From contig CAYXNY010000045.1 of NCBI GenBank assembly GCA_964467175.1, positions 1 to 60,047 on the forward strand: a stretch of DNA of 60,047 bases, written 5' to 3'. Under the pieces are notes generated by a model. That model was not told the origin of the DNA. It worked only from the letters and a program-made list of their open reading frames with translations, and made no database searches. The DNA comes from Candidatus Micrarchaeota archaeon (GTDB lineage: Archaea > Micrarchaeota > Micrarchaeia > Anstonellales > J096). This document shows, piece by piece, positions 9,531 through 58,774 of the stretch; within the stretch, counting starts at the first letter, position 1; each line of letters opens with the position of its first letter. A program made the position numbers and the translations under genes.

Positions 9531-12704
<3,174 letters not shown>

Positions 12705-12736
12705 ATATCCTTAAACTTCTGATATGCTCGCTCTTC
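12705..12736 (-). other. 5' half of 23S rRNA processing stem
   Basis: Inverted complement of 9498..9527 (see that feature). Confidence 0.6.
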
Positions 12737-14072: not shown

Positions 14073-14095
14073 TTACTCCGCCGCTTATGGATACT

Positions 14096-14413: not shown

Positions 14414-14442
14414 CTTATCACCTCATATTTTATTTATATCCT

Positions 14443-15390: not shown

Positions 15391-15647
15391 TTTTTATCAC
15401 CTTCAATTAGTTTGAATATCTTCTTCACCCTTCTATCCTTTATTGAATAGAGAACCATTCTTCCATTTCTACGAGATTTAATCAAGCCCCATTTGACAAG
15501 TTTAGCAAGATGCATGGATGTATTCGACTGCGTTCTTCCAATTTTACTAGGAATTTTGCATGCGCACATTTCTCCTGAAAGAAGGCATTTTAATACCCTA
15601 TATTTTGTTTCTTCTCCCAGTGCTTTAAACAAATAGATGTTTTTCAT
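15387..15647 (-). CDS. ArsR/SmtB-family winged-helix transcriptional regulator
   Basis: 86 aa. CAC metal-site-like motif followed by an HTH (GEMCACKIPSKIGRTQSNTSMHLAKLVKWGLIKSRRNGRMVLYSI). Confidence 0.8.
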   Translation of the reverse strand: MKNIYLFKALGEETKYRVLKCLLSGEMCACKIPSKIGRTQSNTSMHLAKLVKWGLIKSRRNGRMVLYSIKDRRVKKIFKLIEGDKK

Positions 15648-15665
15648 ATCAATGGATATTGATAT
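15646..15665. promoter_or_regulatory. Palindromic candidate operator at arsR start
   Basis: atatcaat-ggat-attgatat has 8-nt perfect inverted arms and overlaps the arsR ATG (15645-15647). An A/T-rich TATA-like stretch (ttataaacatatat on the minus strand) lies just upstream. Confidence 0.4.
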
Positions 15666-15782
15666 ATATGTTTATAAGGCTTTCTGTTTTTGAGAGGGTG
15701 CTTGAAAAATTTTTGTAAGCAAAAATCCTTCGCAAATTCATTGACCGAAATATTTTAAATCTCAGCAACAGATTGTAAAAAA

Positions 15783-16472
15783 ATGAAAGCTTTTGTCGGA
15801 ACATCCGGCTGGGCCTATGGATGGAACGAGGGCGGAAATTTTCAGTGGTTTGTAGAAAACTCCGGATTGAATGCAGTTGAAATTAATGCAAGTTTTTACA
15901 GATTTCCCTTCCCGAGCCAGGTCAAAGGATGGGCAAAAAGAACAAAGGAGATAAGATGGGCCGTGAAGGTTAATAGATTAATCACGCATGTGTTTAAATT
16001 TGGGAATAAGGCGAAGCAAACGTGGAAAAGGTTTGAGGAGATTTTTTCGCCCCTGCATAAGAATATTGATTTTTATCTTTTTCAGCTTCCGCCCAGCTCA
16101 GGGCCGGATATGGCTGAAAAAATTGAGAGGTTTGCGAAATTCACGAAGCTCGGAGAGAGATTTGCGTTGGAAGTGAGGAATGAAAAATGGTTTGCAAAGG
16201 AGTGGGTTGAATGGGCGGTGAAAAATAAAATTACATGGGTTTCAATAGATGCGCCTGAATTTTCGCGCGGAATTTTCAAAACAACGGATTTTGTTTATTT
16301 GAGAATGCATGGGAGGAAGAGCTGGTATTCTTATAATTATTCCAAGCAGGAATTGAAGGAAATTGCGGAGAGAATAAAAAAAGCAAACCCAAAAGCTGCT
16401 TATGTTTTCTTTAACAATAACCATGATATGCTGAACAACGCGAGGGAGATGAAAAGGATATTGGAAAAATAA
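15783..16472 (+). CDS. DUF72 (UPF0759) family protein
   Basis: 229 aa. The N-terminus FVGTSGWAYGW... and overall pattern are typical of DUF72. Confidence 0.7.
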   Translation: MKAFVGTSGWAYGWNEGGNFQWFVENSGLNAVEINASFYRFPFPSQVKGWAKRTKEIRWAVKVNRLITHVFKFGNKAKQTWKRFEEIFSPLHKNIDFYLFQLPPSSGPDMAEKIERFAKFTKLGERFALEVRNEKWFAKEWVEWAVKNKITWVSIDAPEFSRGIFKTTDFVYLRMHGRKSWYSYNYSKQELKEIAERIKKANPKAAYVFFNNNHDMLNNAREMKRILEK

Positions 16473-16494
16473 AAAATATTCGTTACACCTTTTC

Positions 16495-17124
16495 CTAAAT
16501 TTTATTTAAGTTTTTCAAAAACCTCCTTTTCCATTTGGCAAATTCGTTCACGTCCAGTCCTATGTAAGCCAATTCCTCAACGCCTATACTGTTTATTTCG
16601 TTCAAAAGTTCTTTTTCAAAATATTCTATCTTAGCTTTCCTCAAAAAAATCCTATATTTTTTTATATCAAACTCGGTATGAATCAAAAGGGTTGCTATAT
16701 CGATTATGTCCTTTCTTCCTTTTATCGAGCCCCTTCTATTAATTTCTGCGGATTGTTTTAGTATGATAAGGATCTCGGGGATGGGGACTTTGATTCCGTT
16801 AATAACACGGGTGTTTTTTAGTATTGTCTCAACAGGAAGAGGAAGCGTAGAATAGGATGGCAGGTACAGGTCTATATCAAAATCCTCGCCCTTTATTTCG
16901 TATTTTCTTAATCTTTCGTTCTTTTCTACAGTATACTCGGCACGAATCGCGAGCAGTGTGTTGTAATCAAGAATCAAATCGATATCTTTTGATTTATGCA
17001 TCCCTGTCCACAGATACGCTGCCCAGCCGCCGATAACTGTTACATCGTATTTCTTGCTAATCTCTAGAAGCTTCTCAAAACTTTTTTTCGTTACGCTATC
17101 ATTCCAGAATTCCTTCACTTTCAT
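16495..17124 (-). CDS. Pol-beta-fold nucleotidyltransferase-like protein (MNT/AbiEii-like)
   Basis: Start trimmed to the ATG at 17124, which forms an ATGA overlap with the upstream gene's stop. NTase signature hGG-x(10-13)-DhDh is present: VIGGWAAYLWTGMHKSKDIDLILD. Confidence 0.5.
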   Translation of the reverse strand: MKVKEFWNDSVTKKSFEKLLEISKKYDVTVIGGWAAYLWTGMHKSKDIDLILDYNTLLAIRAEYTVEKNERLRKYEIKGEDFDIDLYLPSYSTLPLPVETILKNTRVINGIKVPIPEILIILKQSAEINRRGSIKGRKDIIDIATLLIHTEFDIKKYRIFLRKAKIEYFEKELLNEINSIGVEELAYIGLDVNEFAKWKRRFLKNLNKI

Positions 17125-17714
17125 AGGTTCAACCTCCTTATAATGGCATTTGCAAAATCGCTCGCGTACCATTCTCTTAAATTCCACAAATCAACAAAAA
17201 CCTGCGGAAGCGGAGCTGTGGTTTTTTTTCTACGGAATAAAAACCTGTCTCCTTCAAGAACAAAAACATTTTCTGGCCCTTTTCTCTTCGGAAATCTCCT
17301 GATTATTTCCTGTGCTGTTTTTTTATCCGCATAGACATAAACCTCGCTGTAATCTGCCGGTGCTTCATTATAAATCATTCTGTACGCCGAATACGCAGTA
17401 AAAACAACCCCGGAAGGCATGGACCCTTCTATCTTCACAACCGGCATCTCGCTCCTAGTGGTGTAGAGAATATCCCTGCGCAGGCTCCTCTCAGAAGCCC
17501 AGAAGAGAAGGGCTTTCTTAGCGTCCGCCAGCATGAAGGAGCGCTGTTTTTTCTGTACTGCCCCTATTTCTTCTAAAGGTTTTATCGCGTTGTTGACGGT
17601 GCTTAAAGAAAACCCAAATTTTTTTGAGAGCGAGAGCTGCGTAAAAGAAAAAATTTTTTCCTCTAAAGCCTTTGAGAGCACCTCCCTGTAAACTATCTCT
17701 TTCTTTTTGAGCAT
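17121..17714 (-). CDS. Winged-helix DNA-binding protein (AbiEi-like partner of downstream NTase)
   Basis: 197 aa. N-terminal wHTH (FTQLSLSKKFGFSLSTVNNAIKPLEEIGAV). Translationally coupled to the NTase gene. Confidence 0.45.
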   Translation of the reverse strand: MLKKKEIVYREVLSKALEEKIFSFTQLSLSKKFGFSLSTVNNAIKPLEEIGAVQKKQRSFMLADAKKALLFWASERSLRRDILYTTRSEMPVVKIEGSMPSGVVFTAYSAYRMIYNEAPADYSEVYVYADKKTAQEIIRRFPKRKGPENVFVLEGDRFLFRRKKTTAPLPQVFVDLWNLREWYASDFANAIIRRLNL

Positions 17715-17798
17715 GTTCTATTTTGAGATTATTTATTTTTAAATGTTTCGAAAATTTTCGAAAATTAACCATCTCCCGAACTTTGAACCCTTCCTTTT
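17701..17798. repeat. 98-nt direct repeat, copy 1
   Basis: Near-identical to 18501..18599 (a few mismatches and one 1-nt indel). Contains the first 14 nt of a CDS (MLKKK), a TATA-like tttaaaaata (minus strand), a tandem ttcgaaaatt x2 and a 60-nt copy of the taw1 3' end. Confidence 0.85.
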
Positions 17799-18514
17799 TA
17801 CCTAGATTTTTTGGCCTGCTTGGGGCGCTTATCAAAATAAGTCTTAACATATTGGATTCTTTCTTCGTCTGGCGGATGATATTTTATTAAATTTCGTAAA
17901 AAGTTTATTAAATTTCGTAAAAACGGTATTTTTTGCAAAAACGAGTGAAATGGGGGCGATGATGCAAGTTTTCGTATCTCTTCTAATGCCTCCTTCATAA
18001 GGACATGCGGCTCATTCACTCCGTATTCGCTATAAAGTTTAGTGGCAGCCCAGAGATCCGCATCAAACTCATCTTCTCGCATGAACGGACAGAAAATTTT
18101 AAGGAGGAATAGAACAATAATCAACAATAAAAACAAAAATAACAGTAATAAATTAATAAGCTCAGAGAGATTAACTATATCTGGCCTCGCGTTCAGTAAA
18201 AAGTATATAAGCAAAAACACAAAAGCAACAAGAGCAATAATAATCCAAATAATAAGATAGGTTCTAGAACATCTTTTTATATGCCCTTCTTCATGCAAAA
18301 GCACAAATCTCGCATATTCTTTTTTTATATTTTCAAAAACAGGATTATAATTAATGGATAGCCACAGTCCTTGAAAATTCAGGGAAATGGGACATTTTAT
18401 CAATGTTCTATTCTTATCTATAAGGCCTTTGTTTTTTAATTCTGAGAATACTTCTTCTACAGCGGAGGGCTTTTTAATTTTGCTTTTCTCATTTAAAATC
18501 TTCTTTTTGAGCAT
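17798..18514 (-). CDS. Membrane-associated HExxH zinc metalloprotease-like protein
   Basis: 238 aa. HEEGH motif (VLLHEEGHIKR), two central TM helices and a downstream EFDAD motif reminiscent of M48-type peptidases. Confidence 0.5.
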   Translation of the reverse strand: MLKKKILNEKSKIKKPSAVEEVFSELKNKGLIDKNRTLIKCPISLNFQGLWLSINYNPVFENIKKEYARFVLLHEEGHIKRCSRTYLIIWIIIALVAFVFLLIYFLLNARPDIVNLSELINLLLLFLFLLLIIVLFLLKIFCPFMREDEFDADLWAATKLYSEYGVNEPHVLMKEALEEIRKLASSPPFHSFLQKIPFLRNLINFLRNLIKYHPPDEERIQYVKTYFDKRPKQAKKSR

Positions 18515-18599
18515 GTTTCTATTTTGAGATTGGTTATTTTTAAATGTTTCGAAAATTTTCGAAAATTAACCATCTCCCGAACTTTGAATCCTTCCTTTT
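18501..18599. repeat. 98-nt direct repeat, copy 2
   Basis: See 17701..17798. This copy spans the genuine taw1 3' end, the intergenic promoter and the first codons of the metalloprotease gene. Confidence 0.85.
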
Positions 18600-19544
18600 C
18601 AGCACAACTATTCTGCTCTCCTCCTGCTCGTCCATGTATTCGTAGTTCGGCAAAAATCTGAGGAGGTTTTCAGAGAGTTTTTTTATCTCATGGTGCCTAG
18701 GCATGTTTTCTATTTTCAATCTTTTTCTGGAATAGCCCAGCCACATGTACGCTTTTATTTCAATAAAATCCGCTTTGCTCTTTTCGAATAATTTTGCATA
18801 CTGCGAAAAATATTTTTCATCATCATTCAGCCCTTTTATTACCGTAAACCGAATTACCCTTCTTGTTGGAATTTTTGCAACGAGCGAAAGCGTTTTGTTC
18901 AATCTTTCCCATCCATCTTTGTAGAGGGATTTGTTTATTTTTTTGAAAAGCGTTTTATTCGGCGCGTCAAAACTTACATACAATTGATGGGGAAGGGCGT
19001 TTTCCTTCCAAAGTTTTTCAAGCATTTTCGGCTCCTGGCCGTTTGTAACTATAAAAATGCTTTTCACTTCTCTGTGCTTTTTAAGCTCTTTCACTAGTTC
19101 TGGAAGAAGAGGGTAAAGAGTGGGCTCGCCGCTTAAACTTATCGCCCAGTGAGAGGGAAATAGCTCAAAAGACTCTTTCCAGAGTTTTGAATTGACATCA
19201 TAAGCCCCGCCTATTCCGGAAAGAAGTCTTTTTCTCTGCTCAACCACCTTTTGTATTATTTCTTCCGGATCGTCTGCCTCTTCTTTTTTCATTTTAATAT
19301 TTTTCATGAATTCCATAGGCCTCCAGCAGAAAATGCAGTTCTGCTGGCACCACACAGCCGCAGGAGACATTTGGGCGCAGCGATGGCATTCTATTCCATA
19401 GAATTTTTGCTTATAGCACACGCCCTTTCCGCGTAAGGCTTTTTTTGTCCATGCGCAGATTTCAACAGCAGAATGATTGCCGGCGATTCCGTAGTGCATA
19501 TGCTCTAGCTTCTCTCTTACAAATTCCGGAATGGAAACTTTCAT
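18540..19544 (-). CDS. taw1: Radical-SAM 4-demethylwyosine synthase Taw1 (TYW1 homolog)
   Basis: Start trimmed to MKVSIPEF (M22 of the listed ORF). Conserved YGIECHRCAQMSP...CQQNCIFCWRP cysteine clusters are typical of Taw1/TYW1. Confidence 0.8.
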   Translation of the reverse strand: MKVSIPEFVREKLEHMHYGIAGNHSAVEICAWTKKALRGKGVCYKQKFYGIECHRCAQMSPAAVWCQQNCIFCWRPMEFMKNIKMKKEEADDPEEIIQKVVEQRKRLLSGIGGAYDVNSKLWKESFELFPSHWAISLSGEPTLYPLLPELVKELKKHREVKSIFIVTNGQEPKMLEKLWKENALPHQLYVSFDAPNKTLFKKINKSLYKDGWERLNKTLSLVAKIPTRRVIRFTVIKGLNDDEKYFSQYAKLFEKSKADFIEIKAYMWLGYSRKRLKIENMPRHHEIKKLSENLLRFLPNYEYMDEQEESRIVVLKRKDSKFGRWLIFENFRNI

Positions 19545-19628
19545 ACATTTTATTTTAAGAATATAAGTGTTTAAAAATGAGCGCAAGACCGAAAGGTTTA
19601 AATACATTTATTAACATATATTATAACT

Positions 19629-20270
19629 ATGAACAGAATAGAAAGGCCGGAAATAAAGAAGAAAATTAGTTCATACAGGCAGTTAAAAGACCCACCGGGT
19701 GATAAGCTGAGAAAGTTTGATTTTGATAACGCGAAGGACTGGAACGAAAAAGTTAAAGTTGGAAAAAGAAAAAAAGTCCTGAAAGAAATAACGATAGAAA
19801 ATTCGAAAGCTAAGGAAGCTGCCGTAGGAGAGAAATTAAGAGAGTTTATCGCGGGGAATGGAGAAATATCTCTTACAAAGGTGAAGCAAAAAGTAGATGC
19901 GCTCCTGCTGTACCTTAAAAGCGAAAACAAAGGAGATGTTGAGTATGCGGTAGCGGAATTGTACAAACTGGCCCGGTTCTTTCATGATAGAGGGGAAGTG
20001 ATTTTTGAAATAATCGACGCTCTCGCTTACGGAACAACAACAAGCAAAGCACATAATGCCTTGGACGCGCTCAATATTCTCTTAGAAAATAAGGAAATAG
20101 AAAAATATGTTAAGCAGTATATCATAGAGCGCATGGTATTTTATAATGAAGAAATACCTCAAGAAGAAATGGAATTTGTAAAGAACATACTGAGTAAAGC
20201 TTGCGAAATTACAACAGACCTCAGCGTAAGAAGAAAAGTACAAGAGATACTGAAAAAACAATGGACATAA
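19629..20270 (+). CDS. Hypothetical helical protein
   Basis: 213 aa. No recognisable motif. Coding-like composition and a clean start with upstream A/T-rich promoter. Confidence 0.4.
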   Translation: MNRIERPEIKKKISSYRQLKDPPGDKLRKFDFDNAKDWNEKVKVGKRKKVLKEITIENSKAKEAAVGEKLREFIAGNGEISLTKVKQKVDALLLYLKSENKGDVEYAVAELYKLARFFHDRGEVIFEIIDALAYGTTTSKAHNALDALNILLENKEIEKYVKQYIIERMVFYNEEIPQEEMEFVKNILSKACEITTDLSVRRKVQEILKKQWT

Positions 20271-20322
20271 GTTGGGTTTTGGGTTGTAGTATATATTTAA
20301 AAGCAATTTACCATAAAGTTGC

Positions 20323-20769
20323 ATGAGGCTTTGGTCCATTCATCCGCGTTATCTAGATGCAAAAGGATTGGTTGCTCTTTGGAGGGAAGCTCTACTCGCA
20401 AAAAAGATTCTTGAAGGAAAAACGAAAGGATACAAAAACCATCCTCAACTTGTAAGATTCAAAAGGTACAGAGACCCGATCCTTGCTATATGCTCCTATC
20501 TTCATTGGGTTATGGAGGAAGGAGAAAGAAGAGGATATAATTTTGATAAGAGAAAGTTTTCTTTGAAATCGCCCTTGAAAGAAGCCATACCTGTTGGCAA
20601 AGGACAGCTGAAATTTGAGTTTCAACACCTATGCAAAAAACTAAAGGAAAGAGATGAAAAGAAGTATAGAGAAATCTGCAGAAGAAAACCGAGTCCGCTT
20701 GCCCCGCATCCGCTTTTTTATGTAAAAAAGGGCGCAATAGAAAAATGGGAGAGAGGAATAAAAAAATAA
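20323..20769 (+). CDS. Pyrimidine-dimer DNA glycosylase / endonuclease V-like (Pyr_excise family)
   Basis: The N-terminus MRLWSIHPRYLDAKGLVALWREALLAKKILEGKTKGYKNHPQLVRF matches the conserved signature of this family. Confidence 0.7.
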   Translation: MRLWSIHPRYLDAKGLVALWREALLAKKILEGKTKGYKNHPQLVRFKRYRDPILAICSYLHWVMEEGERRGYNFDKRKFSLKSPLKEAIPVGKGQLKFEFQHLCKKLKERDEKKYREICRRKPSPLAPHPLFYVKKGAIEKWERGIKK

Positions 20770-20806
20770 TAGTTTAAAAAACCAATTGGGCAGTATCTAA
20801 ACCTAT

Positions 20807-20949
20807 GGGCCTGTAGCTCAGCTTGGATAGAGCGACAGCCTTCTAATAAAGAAGGCCAGAGGAAAAACCTCGGCGGTTGCTGGAGGTAAGATAGGAACCG
20901 CCGGAGGTTCCTGCGCTGAAGGTCGTGGGTTCAAATCCCACCAGGCCCG
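20807..20949 (+). tRNA. tRNA-Arg(TCT) with ~68-nt intron at/next to anticodon loop
   Basis: Hand-folded. Acceptor gggcctg/caggccc, D arm gctc-agcttggata-gagc, anticodon stem acagc/gctga (27:43 A-A), loop cttcta(a) with TCT at 20842-20844, and T arm gtggg-ttcaaat-cccac. There are 75 nt between the anticodon stem strands (7 loop plus 68 intron). No encoded CCA. Confidence 0.85.
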
Positions 20950-20952
20950 TAA

Positions 20953-21096
20953 GCCAGGGGGAGCTTTATCTTTTCTAATCTCCCCCTAGCTTCAACCCCC
21001 TTATGTGATTAGAAGGTTTGGCGGAGGCCAGGGGGAGCTTTATCTTTTCTAATCTCCCCCTAGCTTCAACCCCCTTATGTGATTAGAAGGTTTGGC
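20953..21096 (+). repeat. Tandem 70-nt repeat x2 (period 74) starting 3 nt after tRNA-Arg
   Basis: gccagggggagctttatcttttctaatctccccctagcttcaacccccttatgtgattagaaggtttggc at 20953-21022 and again at 21027-21096, separated by ggag. Each copy holds the hairpin agggggag...ctccccct. Confidence 0.9.
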
Positions 21097-21175
21097 ATAA
21101 GGTTGTTGAGATATAAAAAATTAGTAGAACTAAGAAACAAAAACAAGAAAGAAAAAAAAGAGTGTAAAGAGAAAT

Positions 21176-21478
21176 TTACTCTGCGTATTTTGAGATGTAT
21201 TTTTCCAAAGGCCTTGGGTCTTTTCCGGAGTAGACCTGGTAGCCGTTATAGATTGAGTACAGCCACACAAGTAAACCGCCGATTCCGAATGTAACGATGC
21301 TAACCACAAATCCTATAAGGCCTATCGCAACCGCCTGTATGTAGTGGTATTTCGAGAATCCGCTCAGTTCGTCTTTCTTTACAGCATACAGGATCAGCGC
21401 AACCAGCCAGAATATATACCCTATAAAAAGCAGCACTAGGTCGTCCTTTCCTTTTTCCGCAGTTTTCTTCTTTGCCAT
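21176..21478 (-). CDS. Small membrane protein (2-3 TM)
   Basis: The listed ORF 21176..21610 is trimmed to MAKKKTAEKGK... because its first 44 codons overlap tRNA-Ala. 100 aa with two or three TM segments. Confidence 0.5.
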   Translation of the reverse strand: MAKKKTAEKGKDDLVLLFIGYIFWLVALILYAVKKDELSGFSKYHYIQAVAIGLIGFVVSIVTFGIGGLLVWLYSIYNGYQVYSGKDPRPLEKYISKYAE

Positions 21479-21537
21479 GAAAATCACCCGGTAAAGATTA
21501 AAAACAGAATGCTTATAAACCTTATTCTGACGCAACC

Positions 21538-21609
21538 GGGCTCGTAGATCAGCGGTAGATCGCTCCCCTCGCACGGGAGAGGCCGAGGGTTCAAATCCCT
21601 CCGAGTCCA
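21538..21609 (+). tRNA. tRNA-Ala(CGC), intron-less
   Basis: gggctcg-ta-gatc-agcggta-gatc-g-ctccc-ctcgcac-gggag-aggcc-gaggg-ttcaaat-ccctc-cgagtcc-a. The G3:U70 identity pair is present. Anticodon CGC. Confidence 0.9.
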
Positions 21610-21612
21610 TAA

Positions 21613-21735
21613 GCCAGGGGGAGCTTTATCTTTTCTAAACTCCCCCTAGCTTCAACCCCCTTATGTTATTAGGAGGTTTTGCGGAGGCCAGGGGGAGCTT
21701 TATCTTTTCTAAACTCCCCCTAGCTTCAACCCCCT
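21613..21735 (+). repeat. Second locus of the 70-nt tRNA-trailer repeat (1.7 copies) starting 3 nt after tRNA-Ala
   Basis: Copy at 21613-21682, ggag spacer, then a truncated copy from 21687 to ~21735. It differs from the tRNA-Arg locus copies by a few substitutions. Confidence 0.9.
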
Positions 21736-21776
21736 CCTTAAAAACTGAAAGTCTTGGTATGAGAATCAAGGAAGTA

Positions 21777-21795
21777 ATGTAACTATAGTTACAAT
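21777..21795. repeat. 19-nt motif with perfect 16-bp palindrome TGTAACTATAGTTACA (copy 1)
   Basis: atgtaactatagttacaat, identical to 23567..23585. Confidence 0.85.
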
Positions 21796-21917
21796 AAAAA
21801 TATCAAACCAGGAAAGAAGAGGAGTGAACTACCCCGCCCTAAAGAGCCATTTGAGAAGGAGAAAGGTTTTCCATTGCAATAATAGAATATTTTTCCGCAA
21901 GTTTTCTGGTCAAACGA

Positions 21918-40909: not shown

Positions 40910-40911
40910 AT

Positions 40912-41123
40912 GGGGAAGTGGGGTAACCTGGTTAGCCTGCGAGCTTTGGGAGCTTGCGATCCCGGTTCAAAACCGAGCTTTTATGGGGGAGGTTTCCCCC
41001 CTAAAAGCTACGCTCCCAAAATCACCCCCCTCAAATTTGAATAAAATTTTGGGGGTTGGGAGAAGACTGGGAGGGGGCAAAGCCCCCTATGAGTTTTGTC
41101 TGGTGGAAATCCGGGCTTCCCCA
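40912..41123 (+). tRNA. tRNA-Pro(TGG) interrupted by ~138-nt insertion/intron in the T-loop
   Basis: 5' part: ggggaag-tg-(D arm gggtaacctggttagcct)-g-cgagc-tttggga-gcttg-cgat-cccgg-ttcaaa..., with anticodon TGG at 40947-40949. The matching 3' part ...aaat-ccggg-cttcccc-a is at 41107-41123. The sequence directly after the 5' part cannot pair with the acceptor. 145 nt lie between the T-stem strands. Confidence 0.7.
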
Positions 41124-41209
41124 AGAGAAACCAGGGGGAACTGCGTTCCCCCCTTTCCTCTACCTTCCCACCCCCCTCCTTAAAGAATGTTTGTGAGGAT
41201 GAATATGGC

Positions 41210-41863
41210 ATGAAAGAAAAATTTCCGGGTGTTTTTGAGGAGAAGAAAGAGCTTTACACGCTCAACATGGTTAAGGGGAAGAAGGTTTATGGAGAGAAGC
41301 TCGTGAAAATCGGGGGAAAGGAATATAGAAGATGGGATCCTTTTAGGAGCAAGCTCGCCGGGGCGATAAGAAAAGGGCTTAAGAATTTTCCATTTTTAAA
41401 AAACACAAAAGTCCTTTATCTCGGTGCTTCCACCGGCACAACCGTAAGCCATCTCTCAGATATAATAAGAGAAGGCGGGATATACGCAGTTGAAGTTTCT
41501 CCCCACTCCATGAATTCTCTCATGGTAGTTGCTGAAAAAAGGGAAAACATTATTCCCATTCTTGCGGATGCTAGAAAGCCGGAAGAGTACGCTGAAATAG
41601 GAAAGGTTGATGTCATATACCAGGATGTCGCCCAGCCGGACCAGGACGACATTTTGATTCTGAACGCAAAAAAATTTCTGAAAAAAGGGGGATATGCACT
41701 TTTCTGCGTGAAAAGCCAGAGCATAGATGTTGTAAAAAAACCAGAAGATGTTTTTGAAAATGTGAAGAACAAACTTAAACAATATTTTGAAATAGAAGAG
41801 GAAATCCCTCTAGATCCGTACGATAAGGACCATCTATTCCTTGTTCTGAAATTCAAGGGTTAG
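41210..41863 (+). CDS. flpA: Fibrillarin (rRNA/tRNA 2'-O-methyltransferase)
   Basis: Trimmed to MKEKFPGVFEE... because the listed start at 41096 overlaps the tRNA-Pro 3' exon. Motifs YRRWDPFRSKLAGAI, VLYLGASTGTTVSHLSD and DVAQPDQ. Confidence 0.9.
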   Translation: MKEKFPGVFEEKKELYTLNMVKGKKVYGEKLVKIGGKEYRRWDPFRSKLAGAIRKGLKNFPFLKNTKVLYLGASTGTTVSHLSDIIREGGIYAVEVSPHSMNSLMVVAEKRENIIPILADARKPEEYAEIGKVDVIYQDVAQPDQDDILILNAKKFLKKGGYALFCVKSQSIDVVKKPEDVFENVKNKLKQYFEIEEEIPLDPYDKDHLFLVLKFKG

Positions 41864-42960: not shown

Positions 42961-43063
42961 TCCCGTCGGGCGGACTTGAACCACCAACCTGCCGGTTCCC
43001 ACAGGTGCATTTACGCTGTGCTGAAATCTACAGCCGGCCGCTCTACCGTTGAGCTACGACGGG
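42961..43063 (-). tRNA. tRNA-Tyr(GTA) with 31-nt anticodon-loop intron
   Basis: Minus strand: cccgtcg-ta-gctc-aacggta-gagc-g-gccgg-ctgtag[31 nt]a-ccggc-aggtt-ggtgg-ttcaagt-ccgcc-cgacggg-a. The C1:G72 pair is the archaeal/eukaryal Tyr identity element. Confidence 0.85.
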
Positions 43064-43102
43064 TTGCCCTTTATCTTTTTTCTGTTTATTAGCATAAGTA
43101 TT

Positions 43103-44677
43103 TTAACTTATTTCTCCAAGCAGGACCCTTTGGAATTCTATCGGGTACCATGCGTCCAATGCCTTTATCGCGAAGTCCAGCTTCTCCTCGCTTTCTGCGT
43201 ATATATCAAAAAGTATATCCCCCTTTTCTACCTTATCTCCCTTCATTCTGTAGAGATATATGCCCGCGCCTTTGTCCATCGGCGCGCCCGTAGCCCTCGC
43301 AATCTTTGAAATTATTTTGTTGTCTATGTGCGCTATCTTTCCGCTCCTCTCGGCCTTTACAGAATACTTGTGCTCTCCTAGAGGAATGCTATCCGATGTT
43401 ATGGTCGGGTCGCCTCCCTGCGCCTCTATTATCTCCCTCATTTTTTTGAGCGCCTTTCCGCTGAGTATAAAATGCTCTGCAACAGCATACCCGTCGCCCT
43501 TCGCGACCTTTCCAGACATCTCAAGAAGCTTGCCGGCAAGGAGCAGGCTTTTATTCTTCAAATCCTCAGGCCCCCTTCCCTCAAGAACCTGCATGACATC
43601 CCTTGCCTCCAGCGCAGGCCCGATCCCATTCCCAACCGGCTCTGAACCTTCAGTTATCAAAACATCTATATTCATGCCGACCATTTTTCCTATTTTTATA
43701 AAATCATTTGCGAGGGCTTTCGCCTTTTCAATGTTTTCCACCTTTGCGCCCATCCCGACCGGAATGTCTATAACAACATATTCTGCTCCGACCGCTTTTT
43801 TCTTTGCTAGTATGCTTGCAAGAAGAATGCCCTTCGGGTCCAAGCCAAGAGGCCTCCTTATCCTTATAAGATGGTCGTCAGCAGAGGCTATATTTATCCC
43901 CCCGCCCCACACAATTGCGCCATGCACATTATTCACTATCTCCCTCAGCTCGTTCATTTTTATATTCACGTTTGCAAGAACCTCCATCGTGTCCGCGGTT
44001 CCGGCCGCGGATGTAATTGCTCTTGAAGAGGTTTTTGCTATGTACAGGCCGGCAGCGGCGACAATAGGCACAACAACCATCGTTGTCCTGTTCCCCGCAA
44101 CTCCACCCACGCAATGTTTGTCAACTATTGGGGTTTTCCCAAGCCGGAGCATTTCCCCGGATGCCGCTATCGATTCTGTAAGCGCAACCGTTTCCCTGTC
44201 GCTCATCCCCCTTATGTATGTTGATGCGATCCATGTTGCAAGCTCCGGCTCCGCAAGTTTGTTCGCCATCAGGTCGTTTATCACTGACTCTATCTCCTCT
44301 TTTGAAAGCTCGTTTCCATCCAGTTTTTTCTTTATGGATTCCAAACTAACCGGCGTCGGTAGGTGCTGTATCTCTATTATATCCCCGTCGCTCAGCTCCA
44401 GTTCCTTAGCCACATCCTTGAAAACTCCTATCTCCCCTGCCTTCACCATCTCGCTGCTCAAATCAACTATCGCTGTGTGGTCTTCGCCCCTTATCCTCAG
44501 CCCCACCCTGTTTCCAGGATAGATTTCGTTCTGCATCGCCTCGCTGTCGTTCAGAACTATTATTTTTTTTCCAGTAACAATATCTATTGTTTTAACCTGG
44601 CAGATATACTTTTTGTACTTCCATACCTCCATCTCTTTCTTCTCTCTTTCGGAGGGCATTTCAGCATAATCCGCCAT
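43103..44677 (-). CDS. deoA: AMP phosphorylase / thymidine-phosphorylase family (archaeal long form)
   Basis: 524 aa. N-terminal extension plus glycosyltransferase family-3 core (DKHCVGGVAGNRTT, TSSRAITSAAGTADTME) and a C-terminal alpha/beta domain. Confidence 0.8.
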   Translation of the reverse strand: MADYAEMPSEREKKEMEVWKYKKYICQVKTIDIVTGKKIIVLNDSEAMQNEIYPGNRVGLRIRGEDHTAIVDLSSEMVKAGEIGVFKDVAKELELSDGDIIEIQHLPTPVSLESIKKKLDGNELSKEEIESVINDLMANKLAEPELATWIASTYIRGMSDRETVALTESIAASGEMLRLGKTPIVDKHCVGGVAGNRTTMVVVPIVAAAGLYIAKTSSRAITSAAGTADTMEVLANVNIKMNELREIVNNVHGAIVWGGGINIASADDHLIRIRRPLGLDPKGILLASILAKKKAVGAEYVVIDIPVGMGAKVENIEKAKALANDFIKIGKMVGMNIDVLITEGSEPVGNGIGPALEARDVMQVLEGRGPEDLKNKSLLLAGKLLEMSGKVAKGDGYAVAEHFILSGKALKKMREIIEAQGGDPTITSDSIPLGEHKYSVKAERSGKIAHIDNKIISKIARATGAPMDKGAGIYLYRMKGDKVEKGDILFDIYAESEEKLDFAIKALDAWYPIEFQRVLLGEIS

Positions 44678-52230: not shown

Positions 52231-53403
52231 ATGCCGGCAATACCAACCCTTAACGACTATCTTTCTGTTGCCATGCCGTTTATAGCCGTAGCTTTTGGCA
52301 TCCATGTTTTATACGCTGCTTTGCATTACATGTGGGGGAATTTCATGAACAGCCCTCAGGCATATGCGCGTGGAAAGGAGGAGGTTCTCTCCCTCCTTAG
52401 GACAATAGGCATATTCGTCTCCGTTATTGTCTTATACAATCTTATTATTCTTGGTTTGGGCATAGATTTTATTTCGCTGGCAAAACTTTCTGTAAAAAGT
52501 TTTTTCTGGATGCTTTTGGACAGATACTTGGAAATAATGGGATTTGATTTTGCCCTTGGCAGTATTTCACAAACTGGCATCTTTGTGTTCATCCAAGCCG
52601 AGTACGGGTCGATAGAAATAGGCGGCTCTCCTGTTGTTGGGCTTTCAAACACCCTCACTGTTCTTCACAAGACTCTTGAGCCCCTTCAATATGGTCTGAC
52701 GCTTGCGGCGGGAAGGTACGCCCTCCTTGACTTCGCGCCGGCAGGCATGCTCTATCTCATGCCGCTTGGTTTTTTCCTTAGAGCCTTCCCGTTCACAAGA
52801 AAGACGGGCTCTAGCATAGTCGCTTTAGCAATAACGGTTTTTTTTGTCTATCCGCTTTCTGTTCTTTTTACAGATTATCTGGTCACCGCATATGAAAGTC
52901 AAAAAATGATTTCGCCAACTCTTCCAAAAAACACCCTCATAACTACAGAGACCGATGAAGAAGTTTTCTCAGATTTTGTTGGATATTTAGGCAAAAATGT
53001 ATCCCAAGGGCAGAATGACTACATCCCGCCCGGCGAAACAACCTCTGTAAGCGGCAGTAAAGGACTGTGGGATAGATTCACTCAATGGCTGGGAAATGTT
53101 TTTAATATTGCTGCGTGGGTCAGCAACCTTAGCGAGGGCTTTGCAAATATACTAAGGCTTGCCGGCTCTACTTTAAAGATGCTAGTCACGTTCGGCACGC
53201 CTCTGACCAGCCCAGTAGGATGGGTCCTTCCAACCCTCTTGATTTCTTTAAAGTGGGTTTCCATAATTGCAGAGCAGATTGCAATAATATTTACAATATT
53301 TGTGCTTGAGATTACGATAAGCATCACCATGTACAGGAATATCGCGATGCTCATAGGAGGAGAGCTCAGGATATTCGGCATTACAAAGGTGACAGGAGGA
53401 TGA
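52231..53403 (+). CDS. Polytopic membrane protein, paralog 1 of 6 (LRxFPPTRxxG family, unassigned)
   Basis: 390 aa with multiple TM segments. Signature LRAFPFTRKTG at 52777-52809. C-terminal tail GELRIFGITKVTGG. ATGA overlap with paralog 2. Confidence 0.75.
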   Translation: MPAIPTLNDYLSVAMPFIAVAFGIHVLYAALHYMWGNFMNSPQAYARGKEEVLSLLRTIGIFVSVIVLYNLIILGLGIDFISLAKLSVKSFFWMLLDRYLEIMGFDFALGSISQTGIFVFIQAEYGSIEIGGSPVVGLSNTLTVLHKTLEPLQYGLTLAAGRYALLDFAPAGMLYLMPLGFFLRAFPFTRKTGSSIVALAITVFFVYPLSVLFTDYLVTAYESQKMISPTLPKNTLITTETDEEVFSDFVGYLGKNVSQGQNDYIPPGETTSVSGSKGLWDRFTQWLGNVFNIAAWVSNLSEGFANILRLAGSTLKMLVTFGTPLTSPVGWVLPTLLISLKWVSIIAEQIAIIFTIFVLEITISITMYRNIAMLIGGELRIFGITKVTGG

Positions 53404-54278
53404 ACCCATTAATCTTCGTTGCAATCGGCATCATGATTTCTGTTATCTCCTTAGCGTTTATGTTCGCGAGCTTTGCAAAAAAGCCAGAATGGGAGGCATG
53501 GGCAAAGGTTGAGCTCTACGAGCTTGCTTGGGGAATCATCCTTCTTATAGTTATATATGGAATATACAATACAGTAAGCTTTATCGCGGATTCCTATATA
53601 GGCACAAACATAATAAACTACTCTGAGAACAGGCTGAACGATGTGGTGAAGGACCGCCTTCTCCCGGCCTTCATTCAACTGACCTACTTGGACCATAATG
53701 TTATTTTTTGGAGCCAGTTCAAGCATAGGTTCGGTCCCTCTGCCTGGGGAATAACCTTTAGGCTTTATCCAGGCCTTGAAATATACTCCCAGCCGGTAAG
53801 GATTTTAGAGTTTGGATACATGGCCGCGTTTGCAAGCCTTTCTGTCCAAATTATGCTTTTCCACATCCTTAATGTTATTACAGATGTTTTGATCGCTGCA
53901 GGCCTTCTCTTAAGGTTTTTCCCACCAACAAGGACAAGTGGTAACCTTCTCATAGCCCTTGGTTTTTCCTTTAAAGTAATATTCCCTCTTATGTACATTC
54001 TATCTTTCCAGGCGCTTGATGAAATATACAAAATCCATGGATGGAGCATGTCTGGTGTTTGGCAAACAGCCTATATCCCGCAGTTGATAGGCACAACGAT
54101 GCCGATGGTTATTACGCTTACTCCGGGTTTGTTCCATTCTCTTTTGAACAACTTCGGCCATCTTTCTGTTGAGATTCTCGTAATTCCCTCAGCGGCTATG
54201 ACCGTTGCTATCTCAGCAACGACCGGCCTGCAAAAGGCGCTTGAGTGGAAAACAATAGAGCTGGGTGGTTGGAGATGA
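53400..54278 (+). CDS. Polytopic membrane protein, paralog 2 of 6
   Basis: 292 aa. N-terminal TM plus KVELYEL. Signature LRFFPPTRTSG at 53910-53942. ATGA overlaps on both sides. Confidence 0.75.
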   Translation: MNPLIFVAIGIMISVISLAFMFASFAKKPEWEAWAKVELYELAWGIILLIVIYGIYNTVSFIADSYIGTNIINYSENRLNDVVKDRLLPAFIQLTYLDHNVIFWSQFKHRFGPSAWGITFRLYPGLEIYSQPVRILEFGYMAAFASLSVQIMLFHILNVITDVLIAAGLLLRFFPPTRTSGNLLIALGFSFKVIFPLMYILSFQALDEIYKIHGWSMSGVWQTAYIPQLIGTTMPMVITLTPGLFHSLLNNFGHLSVEILVIPSAAMTVAISATTGLQKALEWKTIELGGWR

Positions 54279-55531
54279 TTTCTGTTCCTCTTGAATTTGT
54301 ACCTTTTGCGATAATCGGCGCAGCATTCGGCATCTCCATTTTCCTTTCTTCCATTGCATACATGGTAGGCGTTGCTCTAAGCGATGAAAGGATAAAGGGA
54401 TGGGCAAGGTTTGAGGTGTACGAAATATTCTACTCTGCGGTTCTTGGTGTTTTGATCGCATCCTCATGGGCGGTTATGATAGGGCTGAGCGATGAGATTG
54501 CAAAATCTCTAGACCCGCGGGGTTATCTTTTTGCCTTGGGTGGGATGGATAATGAGCCGATCTTCCTCACCATGGCTCAGACCTACATGCGCGAGATATA
54601 CGGCGAGATTGCGTATCTGTATACCGAGATTTCGAAGGTTACTTCTGTAACCATGTTCCTTGATAGCATAAGCTATACTGTGATTGCAGCCCAGCTTGAA
54701 GATTTTGGCGGAAGCATAGGCTTTAGCCTCTGCCCTCTTTTTTTTGGCCCCTTCAACTTCCTCATGAGCAACATTACAGAAATGCTGATAAGGGTTGGCC
54801 TGATTACTGTATTCCAGGCAGCCATTCTTGCTTTCATAAAGTCCGTGATGCCGGCATTTATCGGCGTTGGTTTTGCGCTCAGAATACTCGGTCCGACCAG
54901 AAAGCTCGGAGGCCTCATGATGGCCATGGGGCTTATGCTCTACTTTGTCTTTCCAATGTTCTATGTTTTTGGAAGCGGAATATACCACTCCCTTGAGCCT
55001 GCTGAGAAGTTTGCCGGCATGAGGATTGCGAAGTTCAACTCCTACTTCGGAACGATTAGCATATTTGGAAATAGTTTGGAGTACGATAAGGAGTTTGATG
55101 AGAAATTTGGGGTTTATGAGGAATACATAAAAAGCGGAAAACTGGAGGAGATGAATACGCAAGAGCTTGAGGCTGGCATAGGCCAGAATCTTCAAGAAAT
55201 AAACAGAGAATTTTCCGGCTTTGACATTTCAATCCCCGGAGCTATGAGGGTGATTCTTGACTACCTTCTCTCTGTCCCAGAACTGCTTGGAAACCTTGTC
55301 TGCATTTCAAGGGTCAGCGCGCAGGCATGGAACTATGGCCTCCTTTCTCCTTTAGTCTATGATAACAAAGTGTTTATCTCAGAGATAATGTTTGAGATGC
55401 TTGCGAACCTCCTGTTTTTCACAACAGTTTTTTCTTTCATGGCGCTCATGGCAGTGATTGCCGGAACAAAAGGCCTTTCCCCGCTGCTCGGAGGGGATGT
55501 TGAGATCGCTGGGCTTACGCACTTTATATGA
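54275..55531 (+). CDS. Polytopic membrane protein, paralog 3 of 6
   Basis: Start set to the ATG at 54275 (ATGA overlap), 418 aa. RFEVYEI after TM1. Signature LRILGPTRKLG at 54878-54910. Tail GGDVEIAGLTHFI. Confidence 0.75.
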   Translation: MISVPLEFVPFAIIGAAFGISIFLSSIAYMVGVALSDERIKGWARFEVYEIFYSAVLGVLIASSWAVMIGLSDEIAKSLDPRGYLFALGGMDNEPIFLTMAQTYMREIYGEIAYLYTEISKVTSVTMFLDSISYTVIAAQLEDFGGSIGFSLCPLFFGPFNFLMSNITEMLIRVGLITVFQAAILAFIKSVMPAFIGVGFALRILGPTRKLGGLMMAMGLMLYFVFPMFYVFGSGIYHSLEPAEKFAGMRIAKFNSYFGTISIFGNSLEYDKEFDEKFGVYEEYIKSGKLEEMNTQELEAGIGQNLQEINREFSGFDISIPGAMRVILDYLLSVPELLGNLVCISRVSAQAWNYGLLSPLVYDNKVFISEIMFEMLANLLFFTTVFSFMALMAVIAGTKGLSPLLGGDVEIAGLTHFI

Positions 55532-55541
55532 GGTAGAAAAC

Positions 55542-56705
55542 ATGGATAAGAGAATGATTTTTGTGCTTTTTGCCTTTGTTCTCCTCATTCCACCAGCTCA
55601 TTCCCAGCAGATTTCTTCTAATGGTTCTGTTCCCGACATTTCGCAACTCGAACAGCTCACTTCTGAAGAAACGATTCAAAAAATGGTAGATGCCACCACA
55701 CGACTCGGAAAATGTGAAGAACCGAAAGACATTTTGGATGTGTTCGGCCTTTCCTACCTCGCTATGGTTGTTGTAATATTTTTCTACACCGCTGCCTATC
55801 TAGGTGGGAAGCTTTTCAACTACCCCGTTACAGACGCGCTTCTAAGGATAAAGATAGACGAGGTTGCAACAACAGTTTTCATAATCTTTGCTGTAAGCTT
55901 TCTTTACGCTTTTGTAAACTCCTCTCCACAGGGATACTACTATCTTAATGAAGCAATCGAGTACAATCAGAAGATTCTTAAGCACGTCCTTGGCAACATA
56001 GGTATTTTCACTATTTTTTCAACTATCATATACCTTCTCTACGGTCTTACAGTATACATTCCTATTGTTCCGGGCATGCCCCTCATAAAGTTTACGATAA
56101 GCATCGGCCCTGCGCTCAAGCCCATTGTAGATATGATATTCCAAAGCTCCAACATGCTTGCCGTTATTGTTATAGAATGGACGACGATGCACGCTATTCT
56201 ATGCATGATAAAAACATGGTGGCTCAGCTTTATTCTTCCGCTCGGGGTTTTGTTCAGAAGCCTGTCAATAACAAAGGATGCTGGAAATACATTGATAGCC
56301 TTGGCCATAGGGATGTATTTTCTCTACCCTATTCTTATGACCATGAACTATGATATATATGAAATGCAGATAGGAAAGGCGGCAACATCGGGCATTACAA
56401 ACTTTGACCTTTTCTTCGGGCAGGTCAAAAATTTTTTCTTTGGCGAGCCCCCGACACTAGTAATCGGCTTTGTCATAGCCGTTCTTGTTGCCATATACAC
56501 AAAGGGCGCGTTTGCAATTGCCGCCGCCCTAGCTTATCTTCTTTGGCTCCTTCAAAACACCCTCCTGGATACAGTATTCCTTATCTTTATCATAAGCATG
56601 TTTCTTCCTGCCCTGAATGTATTCATAACGCTTACATTCGTCATGGAGCTTGGAAAGCTTTTGGGAACGGATATAAATGTATCTGCGCTTACGAAAATAA
56701 TATGA
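55542..56705 (+). CDS. Polytopic membrane protein, paralog 4 of 6 (with extra signal-peptide-like N-terminus)
   Basis: Start set to MDKRMIFVLFAFVLLIPPAHS, with GAGGT 8 nt upstream, 387 aa. RIKIDEV after the family TM1. Degenerate signature FRSLSITKDAG at 56253-56285. Tail GTDINVSALTKII. Confidence 0.7.
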   Translation: MDKRMIFVLFAFVLLIPPAHSQQISSNGSVPDISQLEQLTSEETIQKMVDATTRLGKCEEPKDILDVFGLSYLAMVVVIFFYTAAYLGGKLFNYPVTDALLRIKIDEVATTVFIIFAVSFLYAFVNSSPQGYYYLNEAIEYNQKILKHVLGNIGIFTIFSTIIYLLYGLTVYIPIVPGMPLIKFTISIGPALKPIVDMIFQSSNMLAVIVIEWTTMHAILCMIKTWWLSFILPLGVLFRSLSITKDAGNTLIALAIGMYFLYPILMTMNYDIYEMQIGKAATSGITNFDLFFGQVKNFFFGEPPTLVIGFVIAVLVAIYTKGAFAIAAALAYLLWLLQNTLLDTVFLIFIISMFLPALNVFITLTFVMELGKLLGTDINVSALTKII

Positions 56706-56714
56706 GGTGCGAGA

Positions 56715-57812
56715 ATGATTATGCTTGCTGTTGGCCTTCCTGTTCTTCCGCCGCCTGAACCAGCCGTGCTCACCGCCTGCAATCCTCCGAACATTGATTT
56801 TCTCGGCCTCTCCTTCCTCGCCCTTTTTGTTTCCTCATTGTATATCCTATTTTTCTATTTCTGGGGAAAGCTTACGAGCAATCCAAATACAGATGTTTGG
56901 GTGAAAGGAGAAATTTATGAAATAGGCGCAACTGCTTTCATAGTTCTTTTGTTCCTTCCGCTCTTTCTAAATGTTGCCTGCGCTTTTAAACTAGGCGATT
57001 ACAACATATTCAAAACCGCATCCGTTTACCTAGAGTCTCTAAAAGCAAGCATAACTATAGTAATGGATGCTTTGGCCGGAGGGTATGCCGTAGTGGACAT
57101 GATTGCTTCTATATCAATAAAGGCTCATCCTTTTGGTTTAGGTCTTTCAGCGAATGATGTTGGCGCCGGGATTGTTGCCCTTTGGAAGCCCGTCATCCTT
57201 CAGATAACCAATGCGTTAACCCTCGGCTATATATTCGCATCTGCTCAAACAGTAATTCTCGAGTATTTTACATACGGCATGATAACAAAAATCCTTCCGC
57301 TTGGCGTTCTCCTGAGAAGCTTCACTCCGACAAGAAGGGTCGGGGGGATGCTTCTTGGCCTTTCTCTCGGCCTTCTCTTCCTCTATCCGCTTGTTCTCAC
57401 CCTCAACTACTTCCTTGTTAAGGATTATCTTGTTGTTTCCTGGAATCAAAAATCAAATAAATGGGAACTAGATGAGGGCTTTAAAACCGTTCTTGCGGAT
57501 ATTGGAAAATCAACAATTCCCCTTGACTCGAACGATAGTTCTTGGAGAAACTTCTTCCGCATCGCAGGAGAAGTTGTTTCCATCTTGGGTTCAATAGCGT
57601 TTATATTTACAAGCGGGGTTTGGTTTGTTTTGCTGGCCTGGGGCATTATTATTATTGTTTGGGGCGCGGTTATCGCTGGCGCCTACCTTGGTGTTGTTGC
57701 AGGCATAATACTGCCCGCGATAAATACAGTTATATTAATACAAGGAGTGAGATACTTTACGTACCTGTTTGGAGAAGAGCTTGACATTACAACTTTGACG
57801 AGGATGGTATGA
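56715..57812 (+). CDS. Polytopic membrane protein, paralog 5 of 6
   Basis: 365 aa with GAGGTG upstream. GLSFLAL...GKLTSNPNTDVWVKGEIYEI aligns with paralog 4. Signature LRSFTPTRRVG at 57312-57344. Tail GEELDITTLTRMV. Confidence 0.75.
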   Translation: MIMLAVGLPVLPPPEPAVLTACNPPNIDFLGLSFLALFVSSLYILFFYFWGKLTSNPNTDVWVKGEIYEIGATAFIVLLFLPLFLNVACAFKLGDYNIFKTASVYLESLKASITIVMDALAGGYAVVDMIASISIKAHPFGLGLSANDVGAGIVALWKPVILQITNALTLGYIFASAQTVILEYFTYGMITKILPLGVLLRSFTPTRRVGGMLLGLSLGLLFLYPLVLTLNYFLVKDYLVVSWNQKSNKWELDEGFKTVLADIGKSTIPLDSNDSSWRNFFRIAGEVVSILGSIAFIFTSGVWFVLLAWGIIIIVWGAVIAGAYLGVVAGIILPAINTVILIQGVRYFTYLFGEELDITTLTRMV

Positions 57813-58774
57813 TGGAATTTTGGGAAGGATGGGAAGCGGTTTGTTTGCTCATTTCCGTTATCAGCGTTATAGGAACAGCCATTCTGATTATGGCTGCAAA
57901 GCTTTTCAGCTTAAAGGAGCTTGAGCAGGGTGCAAAGGCAGAGCTCACCTTTGCCATATCCACCGTGTTTATTGTGCTCTTCCTTGTTCTGGCAGTTAAT
58001 TTTGCAGATTCCCTCGCAACAGAGTTTGCTAAGGAAAGTTCAAAAATAATATTCGGCAGAGAAATGCACGCAAACAATTTCTGGGAGGTGTCCAAGCTGT
58101 ACATGAATAACATCTATGAGTGCTATCTAATTTCTGAAAAGATTCTTGTTTCGATAGATGCAGGTGTATCCACAATAGCCAGGCTCAATTTTTCAGCGCT
58201 AATGTTTGATCCTATCGGAGCTTACACTTTTGGAATGATGCACGAGTTTATTGCGAACATTCTTGGCCTGTTATACTATTTCAAATGGGGGTACAAGCTT
58301 ATGATAAAAACCGTTGATTTCTTTTTTTACATAGGCTTTCCCATACTTTTTCCCACAGGTGTCGCTCTCCGCGCATTCCCGCCAACGCGCGGCACCGGCG
58401 CCTACATCATGGCGTTTTCAATAGGCATATACTTTATTTTTCCTATCGCATACCTTCTTGCAATCGGCGTTATGCAGTCACCCTTTTTCTGCCCAACTTT
58501 CTTCCTTAAGTTTGTTCCACTCCTTCTGGACCCGTGCGAAACAGAAGATATAAATATATTTGGCCTAGCTTTCTCTTGGGTTATGGGTAATTTAGAATTC
58601 ATAAATGTATTTTTTAAAGAGTTCATCCCGGGCCTTTTGAGAGAGGTTTGCCTCAATCTGTGCATCTTTCCCTTTGTTGCCCTAATGATAACCTTTTCCT
58701 TTGTAAATTCCGGCTCAAGCCTTTTCGGCGCAAACATTCCAGAGGTGGGAAGGGGGCTCGTGAAGCTGATATAA
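57809..58774 (+). CDS. Polytopic membrane protein, paralog 6 of 6
   Basis: 321 aa. ATGA overlap with paralog 5. Signature LRAFPPTRGTG at 58367-58399. Tail GANIPEVGRGLVKLI. Confidence 0.75.
   Translation: MMEFWEGWEAVCLLISVISVIGTAILIMAAKLFSLKELEQGAKAELTFAISTVFIVLFLVLAVNFADSLATEFAKESSKIIFGREMHANNFWEVSKLYMNNIYECYLISEKILVSIDAGVSTIARLNFSALMFDPIGAYTFGMMHEFIANILGLLYYFKWGYKLMIKTVDFFFYIGFPILFPTGVALRAFPPTRGTGAYIMAFSIGIYFIFPIAYLLAIGVMQSPFFCPTFFLKFVPLLLDPCETEDINIFGLAFSWVMGNLEFINVFFKEFIPGLLREVCLNLCIFPFVALMITFSFVNSGSSLFGANIPEVGRGLVKLI

Follow-up and report, generated by a model that had tools for sequence, protein, structure and literature searches.

A tRNA-Pro(UGG) gene with an intron in the T-loop

[quoted passage not shown] The segment reads, in order, GGGGAAG..CCCGG-UUCAAA, a 138-nt insert and U-CCGGG-CUUCCCC-A. 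A first, sequence-only reading had described the 5' part as a normal tRNA-Pro as far as CCCGG-UUCAAA, with a perfect continuation 138 nt downstream on the same strand, and both elements were recovered here, the continuation at 41110-41123. Exon 1 (40912-40971, +) comprises the tRNA positions 1-59 with the 5' strand of the acceptor, the D arm, the anticodon arm (UGG), the 5' strand of the T stem and the T-loop bases UUCAAA. Exon 2 (41110-41123, +) supplies U60, the 3' strand of the T stem (CCGGG), the 3' strand of the acceptor (CUUCCCC) and the discriminator A; CCA is not encoded at its 3' end. The intron between them (40972-41109, +) is 138 nt long and lies at position 59/60, with boundaries that were set by the BHB geometry.

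When the two exons, 40912-40971 and 41110-41123, were joined, the resulting 74-nt sequence was recognised by ARAGORN as a flawless tRNA-Pro(tgg). All 7 acceptor pairs (7/7) and all T-stem pairs (5/5) were formed and the T-loop was UUCAAAU, in line with the earlier expectation that joining would restore the T stem and the complete acceptor. The spliced sequence had a minimum free energy (MFE) of -37.5 kcal/mol, and the acceptor, anticodon and T arms were all present in the fold. Neither ARAGORN nor Rfam found a second tRNA-Pro gene within the 60-kb window, so the locus is still the sole tRNA-Pro(TGG) seen there, as had been noted.

The exon-intron junctions form a strict bulge-helix-bulge motif

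The junctions of the tRNA-Pro gene make up a strict 3-4-3 hBHBh' motif, in which both splice sites lie inside 3-nt bulges. On the 5' strand (40961-40975, +) the T stem CCCGG (40961-65) is followed by the central helix UUCA (40966-69), the bulge AA|A (40970-72) and the inner helix CCG (40973-75). The 3' strand (41101-41115, +) runs from the inner helix UGG (41101-03) through the central helix UGGA (41104-07) and the bulge AA|U (41108-10) to the T stem CCGGG (41111-15). The predicted cuts fall between the second and the third base of each bulge, at 40971|40972 and 41109|41110, which corresponds to the tRNA position 59/60. Runs of A flank the insert on both sides and had left the junctions ambiguous; this ambiguity is settled because the BHB geometry fixes both cuts. 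Position 59/60 is a listed non-canonical intron position of archaeal tRNAs (PMC4090602; also PMC3239211).

Folding of the tRNA-Pro precursor with the BHB enforced gave -73.1 kcal/mol compared to a free MFE of -76.0 kcal/mol, a cost of 2.9 kcal/mol. Left unconstrained, the isolated RNA does not adopt the BHB at its MFE, which lay 0.6-4.4 kcal/mol below the BHB-enforced fold. The sequence-only reading had also pointed to a complementarity between CAAAAC in the T-loop region and GUUUUG in the 3' part of the insert. This complementarity exists (40968-40973 with 41094-41099), but it is missing in the orthologues and is no part of the BHB; the pairing that defines the splice sites is UUCA with UGGA.

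The intron site and the BHB are conserved in related genomes

Orthologous loci were fetched by the conserved gene order GNAT acetyltransferase - tRNA-Pro - fibrillarin. Two of them (L014 and L015) come from the window's own species and match it exactly at the tRNA-Pro locus. Six further orthologous gene versions had a complete intron, in all cases at 59/60 and with a length of 31-135 nt. Ordered by the identity of their fibrillarin to that of the window, these were L016/L017 (94%, intron of 127 nt), L018/L019 (88%, 53 nt), L029 (87%, 49 nt), L001 (86%, 135 nt), L020-22 (84%, 31 nt) and L024/L025 (83%, 38 nt). In L028 (89%) the intron was partial, with the 3' part only. The exons differed from those of the window at 0-2 of 74 positions. 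Exon 1 was 96.7-100% identical in all fetched orthologues, exon 2 showed no difference in any of them, and one of the exon changes converted a G-U pair of the anticodon stem into G-C. The intron sequences were largely unrelated, and the short ones could not be aligned with the long ones. We conclude from these comparisons that the exons are under strong purifying selection across the clade and that an occupied 59/60 site is the ancestral state of this close clade.

The BHB could be formed in every orthologue, with an invariant UUCA that pairs with UGGA, UGAA or UGAG. The 5' bulge read AAA or AAG and the 3' bulge AAU, GAU or ACU, and the inner helix had a different sequence in each lineage with its pairing kept. 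For a covariation test, the junction halves of 7 orthologues were aligned. Among these, 87.6% of the BHB cells were paired, the T stem and the central helix to 100%, and 6 of 6 inner-helix pairs had changes on both sides. The covariation value was 0.327 vs 0.139, and none of 500 shuffles reached the observed value. As a control, the 3' partner was slid by one to three columns, which lowered every measure by a wide margin. The 5' bulge of L016/L017, L001 and L020 becomes an internal loop through a spacer of 2 nt, giving a relaxed BHB that would require an endonuclease of broad specificity.

A metagenome scan with an anticodon/T-arm pattern brought up no new intron-bearing orthologues. It did return seven intronless tRNA-Pro(UGG) genes of other lineages with the T arm TTCAAATCCGGG, that is CCCGG-TTCAAAT-CCGGG, which is exactly the T arm predicted for the spliced product. 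At the level of Bilamarchaeaceae relatives, where fibrillarin is 70% identical, the GNAT-tRNA-fibrillarin synteny was lost.

The intron interior is variable and highly structured

The insert folded with a z-score of -4.7 and the whole precursor with -5.6; none of 200 shuffles folded as well. Two G5/C5 hairpins that the sequence-only reading had named proved to be real (40976-41009 and 41072-41088), and a third, central hairpin was found between them (41013-41062). Hairpin 1 (40976-41009, +) consists of AGCUUUUA-GGGGGA and UCCCCC-UAAAAGCU; it also occurs in L016/L017, while L001 has a different hairpin in its place. Hairpin 2 (41013-41062, +) is built from CUCCCA / ACCCCC / AAAUUU on one side and AAAUUU / GGGGGU / UGGGAG on the other. 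Among the three long-intron lineages (window, L016/17 and L001), no block is better conserved than the ~30-nt core of this hairpin, CCCCTCAAATTTGA..AATTTTGGGGG, and the remaining parts of the intron are rearranged between them. Hairpin 3 (41063-41097, +) has the form AAGACU..AGGGGGC-AAA-GCCCCCU..AGUUUU with the G/C hairpin at 41072-41088, and a G/C hairpin resembling it is present in L001 and absent from L016/L017.

No Rfam family matched within the intron. A C/D-box family was not matched in 40972-41109 either, and neither TGATGA nor CTGA is present there. RNAalifold on the three long introns gave no usable internal covariation, with three lineages being too few sequences. The interior evolves freely, with lengths from 31 to 138 nt, and has expanded to three stable hairpins in the lineage of the window.

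Downstream of the mature tRNA-Pro, the 3' trailer contains a hairpin (41131-41153, +) of the form CCAGGGGGAA-CUGCG-UUCCCCCC, which is conserved in L016/L017 and is probably a processing or termination element. The trailers of tRNA-Arg(UCU) and tRNA-Ala(CGC), at 20950-21101 and 21610-21761, each carry two tandem copies of a ~74-nt unit TAAGCCAGGGGGAGCTTTATCTTTTCTAATCTCCCCCTAGCTTCAACCCCCTTATGTGATTAGAAGGTTTGGCGGAGG. The two trailer loci are 92% identical over 156 nt, and every copy has a 10-bp G5/C5 hairpin whose loop is rich in U. The tRNA-Pro trailer (41124-41209) seems to be related to this unit but diverged from it. The unit may act in termination or processing, or may represent a family of repeats that accompany tRNA genes. 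The ELP3-anchored loci of relatives, fetched to trace the trailer repeats, differed in synteny and held no tRNAs.

Alternative explanations for the insert

ARAGORN and Rfam both reported a contiguous tRNA (40911-40986 and 40912-40985, respectively), with 31.5 bits against an Rfam gathering score of 29. If this call of 74-76 nt were the real tRNA, the perfect 3' half downstream would be a coincidence, to which we give next to no credence. In the contiguous form, the acceptor would have to contain G1-U, G2.A, G3-U and G4-U, and the T stem a C.A mismatch; the MFE structure of the contiguous sequence contains no acceptor stem. The call arises because the start of the intron, ACCGAGCUUUUAU, partly mimics a tRNA 3' half by means of G-U pairs and mismatches: opposite the acceptor GGGGAAG it offers three G-U pairs and one G.A mismatch, besides the C.A mismatch in the T stem. 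The sequence that follows exon 1 had been said to be unable to pair with the acceptor; this was too strict, since partial G-U pairing is possible, but the pairing is indeed poor. The orthologues L001, L018, L029, L020 and L024 decide the matter, as none of them has a contiguous 3' half and the spliced form is perfect in each. The contiguous call is an artefact. The same likeness might instead mean that the insert is a mobile-element remnant or a tandem duplication of the tRNA 3' end, with ACCGAGCUUUUAU as a decayed first copy of UCCGGGCUUCCCC and a locus that is possibly decaying. Viruses or plasmids that integrate at tRNA genes have been suggested to be one cause of disrupted tRNA genes (see the discussion in PMC3239211), and a mobile-element insertion was one of two possibilities that the sequence-only reading had left standing. 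However, only 10 of 17 bases are alike between the intron start and the 3' half, or 7 of 13 outside the shared AAA. The likeness is restricted to the window and L016/17, and L001 lacks it despite its homologous long intron. It is explained by the intron helices, because the same bases build the inner helix of the BHB and the hairpin 1 stem. The insert has no integrase or other credible ORF, no att-like direct repeat beyond the 10/17 likeness and no second copy in the window or the fetched loci, and viral-contig scans with the conserved intron core and with the trailer unit returned 0 matches each. With the selection acting on the exons across the clade and the short introns at the same site in sister lineages, we regard a mobile or duplicated origin as very unlikely and rejected it, while the other of the two possibilities, a long non-canonical T-loop intron, held up with the strict 3-4-3 BHB, the 59/60 position and the orthologues. 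A self-splicing group I or group II intron is about as implausible as the contiguous tRNA. Group I introns are known in rRNA genes of Micrarchaeota (PMC6125680), but 138 nt is too short for a catalytic core and the orthologous introns go down to 31 nt. Rfam gave no group I match at E <= 1 over the intron and one weak group II fragment elsewhere (43001-43138), and the conserved feature of the insert is the BHB.

A BHB intron may still be more than a passive spacer in the lineages that carry the long form. Their ~100 extra nt could be a conserved, hyper-stable three-hairpin RNA that leaves the precursor as an intron circle and has its own function, for instance as a circular RNA of high stability or as a hairpin bound by a protein, or they could be a copy of a tRNA-trailer repeat or hairpin module. 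The low folding z-score of the insert and the retention of the hairpin 2 core in three lineages speak for such a reading. With the coding region of ELP3 set aside, G5-loop-C5 hairpins occur in the 60-kb window only in the tRNA-Pro intron and in the tRNA trailers, and the Smith-Waterman similarity of the intron core to the trailers was matched by 2 of 500 dinucleotide shuffles in two comparisons. On the other hand, the comparison of intron and trailer in L016 was not significant, and nhmmer profiles built from trailers only and from introns only did not detect each other (E > 0.05). A trailer copy as the origin of the intron core was rejected as unsupported, the profiles failing to cross-detect despite the pairwise scores. 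The intron matches no Rfam family and lacks C/D boxes, its three lineages yield no usable covariation, and the unrelated introns of 31-53 nt in four sister lineages imply that the tRNA can do without the extra hairpins. Overall, we consider a function or a modular origin of the extra sequence unlikely; if true, an origin from a trailer module would mean that T-loop introns grow by capture of tRNA-flanking elements.

Proposed splicing pathway

For the preferred reading, a tRNA-Pro(UGG) spliced at its BHB, we infer the enzymes and the actual excision by analogy to archaeal tRNA splicing and to the Micrarchaeum literature. In the precursor, UUCA of the T-loop (positions 54-57) would pair with UGGA at the 3' end of the intron. 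The T stem on the outside and the intron-internal helix on the inside would complete the BHB, with two 3-nt bulges and 4 bp between them. Since U54-A57 would be held in the BHB helix, the T-loop could not form before splicing. EndA is predicted to cut between the second and third base of each bulge, i.e. after A59 (40971) and before U60 (41110). An RtcB-type ligase would then join the exons to give the T-loop UUCAAAU, and probably also circularise the 138-nt intron. End trimming and CCA addition would lead to the 74-nt tRNA plus CCA. The exons, which hardly vary across the clade, lend indirect support to such an excision and ligation. Among the 58 ORFs of the window, a Pfam scan found neither EndA nor RtcB.

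Comparison to known archaeal tRNA introns

A BHB intron at 59/60 is a kind of intron already known from the phylum; the present one differs from published examples in its length, its three-hairpin interior, the isoacceptor and the lineage. In ARMAN-2 (Candidatus Micrarchaeum acidiphilum), 56% of the tRNA genes are disrupted and the endonuclease is a three-unit epsilon2 EndA of broad specificity (PMC3239211, 2011). Its tRNA-Cys(GCA) has a 13-nt intron at 59/60 that is cleaved in vitro by the epsilon2 EndA (PMC3239211), and its tRNA-Pro(GGG) has introns at 53/54 and 59/60 (PMC3239211; also PMC5829648, PMC4090602). ARMAN-2 and the host of the window share the phylum, the T-loop site and a BHB that is made from the T stem and T-loop bases, and a proline tRNA with a strict hBHBh' motif is found among the ARMAN-2 cases as well. 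They differ in the isoacceptor, here UGG, and in the order, here Anstonellales-like. The ARMAN-2 tRNA-Cys intron of 13 nt has a relaxed hBH motif, in contrast to 138 nt with three internal hairpins in the window, and the ARMAN-2 tRNA-Pro has two adjacent introns, whereas here a single intron is predicted to be spliced out. An epsilon2 EndA is found in ARMAN-2 and Mancarchaeum, and an alpha4 enzyme with an L3 loop in other DPANN (PMC3239211, PMC5829648). The broad substrate range of DPANN EndA has been tied to specific loops (PMC5829648).

Thermoproteales and other Crenarchaeota likewise have protein-spliced BHB introns at transplantable sites, 59/60 among them, with a fast-evolving interior and a constrained BHB. 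Their non-canonical positions include e.g. 3/4, 20/21, 29/30, 45/46, 53/54, 56/57 and 59/60 (PMC4090602). The superphylum is different, and the endonuclease architecture probably is as well, with (alpha-beta)2 and a CSL loop in these Crenarchaeota and epsilon2 or alpha4 with an L3 loop in DPANN (PMC5829648). In Thermoproteales, the same intron sequence is found at several tRNA sites, whereas there was no sign of such sharing here. The intron of the haloarchaeal tRNA-Trp is ~100 nt long, sits at the canonical position 37/38 and encodes a C/D box sRNA. Both this intron and that of tRNA-Pro are archaeal BHB introns with a length of at least ~100 nt and a stable internal structure. The tRNA-Pro intron differs in that it has no C/D boxes and no Rfam match, and its extra sequence is missing in sister lineages. 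At 138 nt, the tRNA-Pro(UGG) intron exceeds the '<100 nt' given for a typical archaeal tRNA intron (PMC4033280).

The intron opens no new question, but the locus extends the 59/60 T-loop introns from Micrarchaeum to an Anstonellales-like lineage and beyond 100 nt. It also provides a natural series, in which one tRNA has one intron site filled with 31 to 138 nt in close relatives, the BHB alone being constrained. For annotation, it matters that ARAGORN and Rfam give a wrong 3' end here or miss the orthologues entirely. As a result of such tRNA-finder errors, metagenome-assembled genomes (MAGs) of Micrarchaeota would seem to lack tRNA-Pro(UGG) or to have a defective copy. Where a DPANN genome seems to lack some of its tRNAs, this has been pointed out as an indication that disrupted genes were overlooked (PMC5829648).

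Host and genomic context

Rfam located an archaeal LSU rRNA at 9521-12707 (-) in the window. The fibrillarin gene directly downstream of tRNA-Pro (41210-41863) encodes a protein that is 83-94% identical to proteins of MAGs named Micrarchaeales, Anstonellales or Micrarchaeota. From these two findings, the host is a DPANN archaeon of the phylum Micrarchaeota, Anstonellales-like. The LSU rRNA gene spans 3187 nt compared to a model of 2987 positions and is solitary; the window contains neither an SSU nor a 5S rRNA. The distance from LSU to ELP3 is ~1.5-2 kb in the relatives L033 and L035 and ~9 kb in the window, where transporters, ArsR, DUF72, a wyosine synthesis enzyme, Pyr_excise and two tRNAs with repeat trailers lie between the two genes (13011-21800). 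The wider spacing suggests an insertion or rearrangement. Further along, at 52231-58774 (+), six consecutive ORFs of 390, 292, 428, 415, 365 and 321 aa on the same strand form an operon-like block; none of the six had a Pfam match even at E <= 0.05.

Four tRNA genes are present in the window and three of them bear introns, i.e. two of the three besides tRNA-Pro, matching the intron-rich tRNA sets of the phylum. The tRNA-Tyr(GUA) gene (42961-43063, -) has a 31-nt intron at 37/38, and tRNA-Arg(UCU) (20807-20949) has an insertion of ~70 nt in the anticodon loop. In intron mode, ARAGORN mis-called the latter as tRNA-Pyl(cta). At no more than 0.3 kcal/mol above the minimum, tRNA-Arg(UCU) has a suboptimal fold with a perfect 3-4-3 BHB-like motif that consists of CAG (20857-59), AGGA (20860-63) and the bulge AAA (20864-66) on one strand and UCCU (20909-12), the bulge GCG (20913-15) and CUG (20916-18) on the other. 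This register alone does not give a 7-nt anticodon loop, and the gene may contain nested introns.

Two DPANN MAGs more distant from the window carry, upstream of fibrillarin, a tRNA-Lys(UUU) gene with an intron. In L004 (Iainarchaeum-like; 5096-5207) the gene has an intron of ~37 nt at 59/60 with a strict BHB, UUCA/UGAA. In L003 (5761-5901) the orthologous gene has an intron of ~66 nt at 37/38 instead. The two introns have GGAACG.GAAACCGGAA in common, a hint of a relocation between 37/38 and 59/60; the similarity was not significant (43/1000 shuffles), and a relocation was discarded.

In some relatives, the start codon of fibrillarin is only ~20-45 nt past the 3' end of tRNA-Pro (L001, 2971-2995; L018, 2458-2501). 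With such a short gap, fibrillarin is probably co-transcribed with the intron-containing tRNA or is transcribed from a promoter within that tRNA gene.
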